From the NCBI RefSeq assembly GCF_003334315.1, contig NZ_QOWR01000033.1: DNA of 50,012 nucleotides. One strand, given 5' to 3'. The DNA is from Escherichia coli. Its GTDB lineage: Bacteria > Pseudomonadota > Gammaproteobacteria > Enterobacterales > Enterobacteriaceae. Position numbers and translations under genes: made by a program. How positions within the stretch are numbered: the stretch's first letter is position 1; each line of letters starts with the position of its first letter. The notes beneath the pieces are model-generated. The model was given only the letters and a program-made list of their open reading frames with translations, ran no database searches and was not told the DNA's origin. Positions 36,929 through 38,322 of this stretch are shown piece after piece.

Positions 36929-38322
36929 GCACAAAATTTTATACCCTGCTGACGGATATTGGCGCGGCGAAACTTGCCAGCGCCGCCGCGCTCGGTGTGC
37001 CGCTAAAAATTACCCATATGGCGGTGGGCGATGGCGGTGGAGTATTGCCAACGCCGGACGCAAAGCAGACGGCACTGGTAAATGAGAAACGCCGGGCTGC
37101 GCTGAATATGCTTTATATCGACCCGCAGAACAGCAGCCAGATTATTGCCGAACAGGTGATCCCTGAAAACGAGGGCGGTTGGTGGATACGTGAAGTGGGC
37201 TTGTTTGATGAGTCCGGGGCATTGATTGCCGTGGGCAACTGCCCGGAAAGCTATAAGCCGCAACTGGCTGAAGGTAGCGGGCGCACTCAGACCGTGCGCA
37301 TGGTGCTGATTACCAGCAGTACGGACAATATCACCCTGAAAATCGACCCTGCTGTAGTGCTGGCAACCCGCAAGTATGTGGATGACAAGGCACTGGAGCT
37401 GAAGGTGTACGCGGATGATCAGATGGCAAAACATCTTGCCGCACCGGACCCGCATTCACAGTACGCGCCAAAAGCCAGCCCGACATTTACCGGAACCCCC
37501 AAAGCGCCAACGCCAGCGGCGGGGAATAATACCACGCAGGTTGCGACCACTGCGTTTGTACAGGCGGCACTGACGGCCCTTATTAATGGTGCGCCAGCCA
37601 CGCTGGACACGCTGAAAGAAATAGCCGCAGCCATTAACAATGATCCGAATTTCAGTACCACCATTAACAATGCGCTGGCACTAAAAGCACCGTTGTCGAG
37701 TCCGGCACTCACCGGAACGCCAACAGCCCCCACGGCGGCGCAGTCGGTCAACAATACACAGATTGCCACTACGGCTTTTGTGAAATCGGCGATTGCAGGA
37801 ATGGTGGGTTCTGCACCTGCTGCACTGGATACACTGAACGAACTGGCGGCGGCACTGGGGAATGATCCGAACTTTGCCACGACAATGCTTAATGCGCTGG
37901 CAGGTAAACAACCGCTGGACAATACGCTGACTAATTTGAGTGGAAAGGATGTAGCTGGTCTTCTCGCATACCTTGGTTTGGGAGAGGGAGCAAAATTAGG
38001 CGCAGCGGTGTGTGTGACCGGCTCTACAGGCTATATGACTATCCCGGCAATGGTCGCCGGGAAAGAACGGGTGATCATATTGCAGTGGTTTGGTGCTGCT
38101 ACAACTGATTATGTGACACCAGTAACTGCGAATTTCCCTATTGCATTCCCAAATGAGTGCATGATTCCGTTATTTAGTGATGTATCAACTGGGGCAGTTG
38201 ATTTGAGTTCTACAGCCGCATATAGCTTAGCGGTGGGCCGATCATACTATACGACGGTAACAAGAACTCAGATTACATGTGCTGGCTACGGTGGCTTTAG
38301 AGTTTTCGCGATTGGATGGTGA
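36925..38322 (+). CDS. H: Tail fibre protein (P2 gpH), expressed version
   Basis: 465 aa; two tandem ~73-aa repeats; variable C-terminus after a hix-like site. Confidence 0.85.
37961..37994. repeat. hix/gix-like recombination site within H (ttctcgcataccttggtttgggagag...)
   Basis: Resembles invertase crossover sites; imperfect inverted partner at 39497..39533. Confidence 0.45.

Follow-up and report, generated by a model that had tools for sequence, protein, structure and literature searches.

Two tandem 74-residue units in a predicted P2-type tail fibre gene of Escherichia coli correspond to the b1 and b2 elements of phage P1

Repeated elements inside a tail fibre gene are already on record for phage P1. 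Its GenBank record (NC_005856, with annotation from locus PP1RP, M81956) places a 'repeated element b1' of 222–223 nucleotides (nt) and a 'repeated element b2' of 222 nt inside Sc, the constant part of tail fibre gene S, with cixR, a recombination site of Cin, downstream of them. Here we compare with these elements a tandem repeat in gene H, a predicted tail fibre gene of a P2-like prophage. The gene lies in a stretch of 50,012 nt of Escherichia coli DNA (contig NZ_QOWR01000033.1 of assembly GCF_003334315.1), and we refer to that whole stretch as the window.

P1 Sc and H have in common two tandem units of 222 nt, or 74 amino acids (aa). In both genes the repeat ends in GKQPLDxTLT and belongs to the constant arm, with a cix-type crossover site at YLGL codons downstream of it. 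The two genes also differ. The attachment domain of H is of the P2 type (PF12571), whereas P1 S has a P1-type domain; the a0 and a1 elements found upstream of b1 in P1 are missing from H; the crossover site follows 44 nt past the repeat in H but about 150 nt past it in P1; and the window that holds H lacks an invertase gene.

The same module is found in P2 gpH and in lambda Stf, each with one unit where H has two, a case of unrelated coliphages having fibre segments in common. The lambda unit is 74–76% identical to the second unit of H and to b2, and the single unit of P2 gpH likewise reads as b2 type; P2 gpH has its N-terminal domain in common with H, but P2 is without an invertible tip. A further likeness is to Bxb1 gp4 (a tail collar fibre protein, PDB 9d93), which matches the profile of the unit at E = 2e-12, and to minor tail proteins from actinophages, mycobacteriophages among them. 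These proteins are matched by one part of the unit alone (motif B, described below) and not by the whole 74 residues, and they are siphovirus proteins from phages of Gram-positive hosts, with another location in the virion. The Pfam family PF03406 (Phage_fiber_2) likewise describes a short fibre repeat of enterobacterial phages, and it is listed for a P1-like S protein with three units. As an identity for the repeat it was rejected: it has no match on H even at E ≤ 10, and therefore is a different repeat from the b units; it is also absent from a protein with nine units.

The gene and its two units are positioned as follows:

36925..38322, plus strand: tail fibre gene H, 465 aa, with an N-terminal tail-collar fibre domain, two shaft units, a short linker and a variable gp53-like C-terminal tip
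37474..37695, plus strand: repeat unit 1, H aa 184–257, an end-to-end match to the hidden Markov model (HMM) of the unit, positions 1–74; counterpart of P1 b1
37696..37917, plus strand: repeat unit 2, H aa 258–331, an end-to-end match to the same HMM, positions 1–74; counterpart of P1 b2

The correspondence with P1 holds unit for unit. In a tblastn search of phage genomes, H aa 181–340 were 80% identical to part of the P1 tail-fibre protein S. At the amino acid level, unit 1 and b1 share 81% identity, as do unit 2 and b2; the two units of H are 61% identical to each other, and the crossed comparisons give 62% (unit 1 with b2) and 66% (unit 2 with b1). Each unit is nearer to its counterpart in P1 than to its neighbour in H and, therefore, the duplication predates the split between the P1-type gene and this P2-type gene. 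As judged from these identities, the repeat is an old tandem duplication that was inherited, or transferred, as a pair. The unit-by-unit comparison with b1 and b2 showed no sign of concerted evolution between the units of H. We consider it highly probable that a structural module of 74 residues, part of the shaft of a trimeric fibre of P2 type, was duplicated in tandem long ago, and that its two copies correspond one to one to b1 and b2 of P1 Sc. The repeat is, in this respect, an already-known feature, and that status rests on the annotation of the P1 GenBank record; its presence there was a point absent from the first-pass annotation of the window.

The first-pass annotation had described a tandem repeat of about 73 aa at 37477–37917 (residues 185–257 and 258–331). 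These limits are right to within one codon, and the true unit is 74 aa. The two units are in tandem, and BLASTP aligns them without a gap at E = 4e-29, with 45/73 identities (62%) and 75% positives. When H is plotted against itself, the check suggested with that description, a strong internal repeat stands out as a single dominant diagonal at offset 74, whose best window has 22/30 identities against 10/30 for the runner-up diagonal. The Smith–Waterman score between the units is 233, compared with 36.3 ± 6.6 (maximum 70) in 2000 shuffles that preserved composition (z = 29.6).

The picture at the DNA level is one of considerable divergence. The units are identical at 138 of 219 positions (63%), with 67, 82 and 40% identity at codon positions 1, 2 and 3, respectively, and the same codon is used at only 19 of the 45 residues conserved between them. 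Neither Tandem Repeats Finder (minimum score 30) nor a seed-based search for direct repeats reported anything at the repeat, because the units are merely 63% identical in nucleotides. The longest exact run in register between them is 12 nt:

37669..37680 (partner 37891–37902), plus strand: AATGCGCTGGCA, the longest in-register exact match of the units and the junction of a one-unit hybrid allele

Two doubts about this region concern its composition, and both can be addressed together. Alanine and threonine make up 39% of the 148 repeat residues, and it could be argued that the likeness between the units is an artefact of Ala/Thr-rich sequence. We discard this explanation altogether: the composition-adjusted BLASTP comparison still gives the E value quoted above, both units match an independent profile from end to end, and the shuffle test together with the lone, ungapped diagonal shows that the repeat is therefore not an effect of composition. 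The other doubt is whether the opposite strand encodes a real protein overlapping the repeat:

37419..37922, minus strand: antisense open reading frame (ORF), 167 aa, TTG start, a non-coding by-product of the Ala/Thr-rich sense frame

The length of this ORF, 167 codons from a TTG start, would speak for a protein, and its open frame covers sense codons 165–369. However, when synonymous codons were swapped among identical amino acids of H, 29% of 2000 such shuffles had an antisense open run that was equal or longer. A stop at sense codon 212 interrupts the frame in both Ecol_224 and E47, the two closest relatives retrieved (the former being 97.7% identical to the window across the stretch from H to the sheath gene); P1 S has stops at codons 314 and 356, and P2 H has one at codon 231. 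Its product, a low-complexity Ala/Ser/Val string, has no match in PHROG. A real protein here is scarcely credible, and the first-pass annotation was correct in calling the ORF a by-product of the repeat.

The assignment of H as a tail fibre protein, already made from the letters of the sequence, is upheld by its domains and its neighbours. Pfam PF12571 (phage tail-collar fibre N-terminal domain) covers H aa 1–150 at E = 1.3e-64 and PF21882 (Gp53-like_C) covers aa 384–465. Between them, on aa 151–383, Pfam has no domain, so that the known domains flank the repeat without covering it; NCBIfam has no match for H. In PHROGs, H falls in tail-fibre families. The gene order is J-I-H-G and onwards to the sheath gene, with baseplate genes J and I upstream and the tail-fibre assembly and sheath genes downstream, as in annotated relatives. 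By domain content and gene order, H is the P2-type tail fibre gene of a P2-like prophage. The repeat region on its own matches 33 PHROG families; among the 25 shown, most are tail or tail-fibre families and the rest have labels without a function. With 44,806 representative proteins also matching the unit profile, the remark that such repeats are typical of fibre shafts is borne out.

Downstream of the repeat, the locus resembles the invertible segments served by Gin, Cin, Pin and Min (Mu G, P1 C, e14 P and p15B Min), in which a constant arm is followed by two opposed tips, each with its chaperone, between flanking inverted 12-2-12 sites of the TTCTC..AAACC NN GGTTT type. The corresponding features in the window are:

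37961..37986, plus strand: cix/gix-like crossover site, TTCTCGCATACC TT GGTTTGGGAGAG, ending the constant part of H 44 nt past the repeat
38316..38747, plus strand: tail fibre assembly gene G (tfa), chaperone of the expressed tip, phrog_188 at E = 2e-51
38719..39150, minus strand: second, inverted tail fibre assembly gene G', phrog_188 at E = 5e-59, so annotated in relatives
39154..39507, minus strand: inverted alternative tip (C-terminal part of H', gp53-like), with PHROG tail-fibre matches
39508..39525, minus strand: second, inverted cix-like site, AAACG TT GGTTTAGGAGA, a match to the site pattern; the same site precedes the invertase gene in E47 and phage 500465-1

The site pattern has two matches in the window, inverted to each other, where 0.01 would be expected. 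DNA identity to related phages ends at about 37985–37995, and P1 cixR lies at the equivalent YLGL codons. The repeat forms the last 148 residues of the constant shaft except for about 13; that it closes the constant arm of an invertible segment was absent from the earlier description. The architecture shows, in order, an attachment domain, two b-type units, a linker of about 13 residues, the crossover site and an exchangeable tip. The two tips and the two assembly genes are arranged convergently, and G and G' overlap by 29 nt at their 3′ ends (38719–38747). Their 5′ parts hold a 57-nt inverted repeat of 77% identity (38331–38387 and 39085–39141), which is explained by the two chaperones being related to each other.

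Unlike the Gin/Cin-type systems, the window lacks an invertase gene in the interval from the right-hand site to the sheath gene, where E47 and phage 500465-1 have one. The distance from that site to the start of the sheath gene (39667) is 141 nt, and relatives hold a 567-nt invertase gene there; a tblastn search of the whole window with the serine invertases of two relatives returned nothing (E at least 0.88). A further difference lies in the silent tip. A simulated inversion leaves it out of frame with the constant part by one base and reading into stops, and lengthening the A8 run at 39494–39501 (minus strand) to A9 restores the full gp53-like tip, ending GFNYFAVGY. The closest relative that also lacks the invertase (Ecol_224, L008) likewise has A8. 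Either the tip has decayed since the invertase was lost, or the tract is prone to slippage.

Beyond this locus, the unit proved to be widespread. A homologue search with the repeat gave mostly fragments of at most 280 aa, which are unsuited to counting units; a profile built from four units was used instead and searched against 1.84 billion representative proteins. Besides the total quoted above, which is at E ≤ 1e-3, there were 15,467 matching proteins at E ≤ 1e-10 and 1,953 at E ≤ 1e-30, and the best 150 matches had 2 to 23 matched stretches per protein. Splitting the profile separated two motifs, A (positions 1–33) and B (positions 34–74), which in H are found at:

37474..37572 (second copy 37696–37794), plus strand: motif A of unit 1, aa 184–216, SPxFTGxPxAPT...NxTQxATTAFV, from the sub-HMM
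37573..37686 (second copy 37795–37908), plus strand: motif B of unit 1, aa 217–254, APxxLDTLxEIAAAxNNDPNF..NALA, from the sub-HMM

In general, motif A begins SPxLTGxPTAPT and is Pro/Thr-rich, and motif B is Ala/Leu-rich and ends NALAxK. Motif A alone occurs in up to 23 copies in proteins without motif B, and it matches two tandem stretches of the tail fibre gp24 of cyanophage A4 (PDB 9k09, a portal-tail complex). Motif B and the full unit each number 0–11 per protein. Pfam-A and NCBIfam have no model for the unit, and Pfam is blank also on the protein with nine units (P0122). We tentatively suggest that the unit is perhaps an undescribed domain family, a composite of the independently repeating motifs A and B and among the most abundant building blocks of tailed-phage fibre shafts, whose number (0–11) would serve as a ruler of length, with out-of-register crossover altering it in steps of a single unit; of this proposal as a whole we are doubtful.

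Copy number does differ among relatives, as a comparison proposed in the first-pass annotation brought out. In characterised phages there are two full units in P1 S, two in H of phage 500465-1, one each in P2 H and lambda Stf and none in Mu S. Within E. coli (complete genomes), 930 records hold the two-unit arrangement colinear with the window; the two-unit rows that were sampled align as a single piece, with the span in the record equal to that of the query, at about 78% to 99.7% identity. One sampled record (H129) is 222 nt shorter, and in it the prophage H of ETEC1718 (L006 1090–2397) has a single unit. This unit is unit-1-like (90–93% nt identity) up to AATGCGCTGGCA and unit-2-like (97–100%) from there on; that is, its switch point is the 12-nt run, the longest in-register identity of the units in the window. 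The hybrid junction was then used as a query, and 60 E. coli records were sampled evenly down the ranking: 24 of the 60 were of the two-unit type (two pieces, spanning 381 nt) and about 22 held a contiguous hybrid-type unit at an identity of at least 90%. In this sample, hybrid-type units and the two-unit form are thus found at about equal frequency, and some of the hybrid-type units lie in fibre genes without a P2-type N-terminus.

A P1-like S gene of an enterobacterial assembly (GCA_000354615.2, contig AQCL01000073, L009 1501–4641) has three b-type units. The first ~60 nt of its middle unit are like the b2-type third unit, with two 24-nt windows at 100%, and the remainder is like the b1-type first unit, mostly at 92–100%. 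The three-unit gene is a recent gain by unequal crossover. A unit that starts as b1 and ends as b2, and an extra unit that starts as b2 and ends as b1, are the reciprocal products expected when b1 and b2 cross over while misaligned; therefore, the idea of length variation by unequal recombination, put forward in the first-pass annotation, is borne out in relatives and on an evolutionary scale. For this gene the idea has to be qualified: with units so diverged (63% nucleotide identity and a short exact run) and the two-unit form colinear in 930 records, the repeat is not a hot spot. We also observed that the BL21 record NZ_CP170101.1 (857130–857785) has a two-unit H, 93% identical to the window, whose second unit aligns contiguously with the unit 1/unit 2 hybrid query at 84%. 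This pattern hints that unit types have been mixed in some lineages, perhaps via gene conversion or mosaicism.

How the one- and two-unit alleles arose admits other explanations. They may result from swaps of whole fibre segments between P1-like, P2-like and lambdoid phages that already differed in unit number, in which case the single hybrid would be an old unit type. The module is indeed common to P1 S, this H, P2 H and lambda Stf at 69–81% aa identity; contiguous hybrid-type single units occur at 90–97% nt identity in many E. coli records, some of them in genes without the P2-type N-terminus; and an 'AGKQPL' tail marks the last unit before the linker in all proteins examined. However, the switch in ETEC1718 sits exactly on the longest in-register identity and the change in length is exactly 222 nt, and the unmistakable, recent hybrid in the middle of the three-unit P1-like allele shows that unequal exchange does occur in the module. 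We regard segment swapping as possible but rather unlikely. At the other extreme, the repeat could be an actively unstable, contingency-like locus that alters fibre length appreciably within a phage population, an idea to which the range of 0 to 11 copies across homologues and the existence of one- and three-unit hybrid alleles lend some appeal. It is very improbable here: third codon positions approach saturation and exact runs in register do not exceed 12 nt, unit 1 pairs with P1 b1 and unit 2 with b2 while homogenisation by concerted evolution is not apparent, and the two-unit form stays colinear over the whole range of identities sampled.

Several points weigh against our preferred interpretation of an old, structural duplication that occasionally changes by whole units. 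With the nucleotide identity and maximum run found here, exchange of the RecA type between the units of H should be very rare. Fibre genes of other than P2 type, such as some in O157:H7 prophages, also carry single units of the hybrid type, so that a one-unit state could be old and not a deletion, and the difference between one and two units may run in either direction. The AlphaFold2 (AF2) models are unreliable. The monomer of H aa 170–355 reached a pLDDT of 60.7, with helices over motif B and motif A irregular at low confidence, and a linked trimer, made of three two-unit segments joined by 60-residue Gly/Ser linkers and modelled with a 10-row alignment of similarly tripled homologues, reached 27.9 with the same secondary-structure pattern as the monomer. 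Three PDB entries with sequence matches (9d93, the Bxb1 tail tip; 9k09; and 6v8i) leave the fold unsettled: among PDB sequence matches to the unit there was none whose matching part is known to have been resolved, and 80alpha FibU (6v8i), which has motif B, is modelled to residue 123 only, its matching region being unresolved. Since the models are poor and this region of FibU is not seen, we infer, and do not observe, the helical bundle and the spacer role.

Under the reading that the pair is an old duplication of a shaft module, the units would act as rigid spacers that set the distance from the baseplate-attachment domain (aa 1–150) to the receptor-binding tip. In a trimeric rod, as the low-confidence models would have it, helical bundles of motif B would be joined by motif A and would fix the reach of the tip, and the number of units would be expected to affect the length of the fibre. 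The units would also make up the conserved terminal part of the constant arm, and the cix-like site downstream would be where alternative tips are joined to it. Rare out-of-register crossovers inside the module would add or remove exactly one unit (222 nt).

Beyond annotation, the repeat has little significance. For annotation, we flag a gap, namely a module present in tens of thousands of protein clusters for which neither Pfam nor NCBIfam has a model. The one-unit and three-unit hybrids are a clean natural case of both products of unequal crossover in a fibre shaft. The boundary between constant shaft and exchangeable tip can be set at about 37970, which may be of use for designing chimeric P2-type fibres or tailocins because b-type units are natural and widely shared splice points. 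Since fibres of the P1, P2 and lambda types and many others have this module in common, it would also offer their phages homology for swapping tips with one another.

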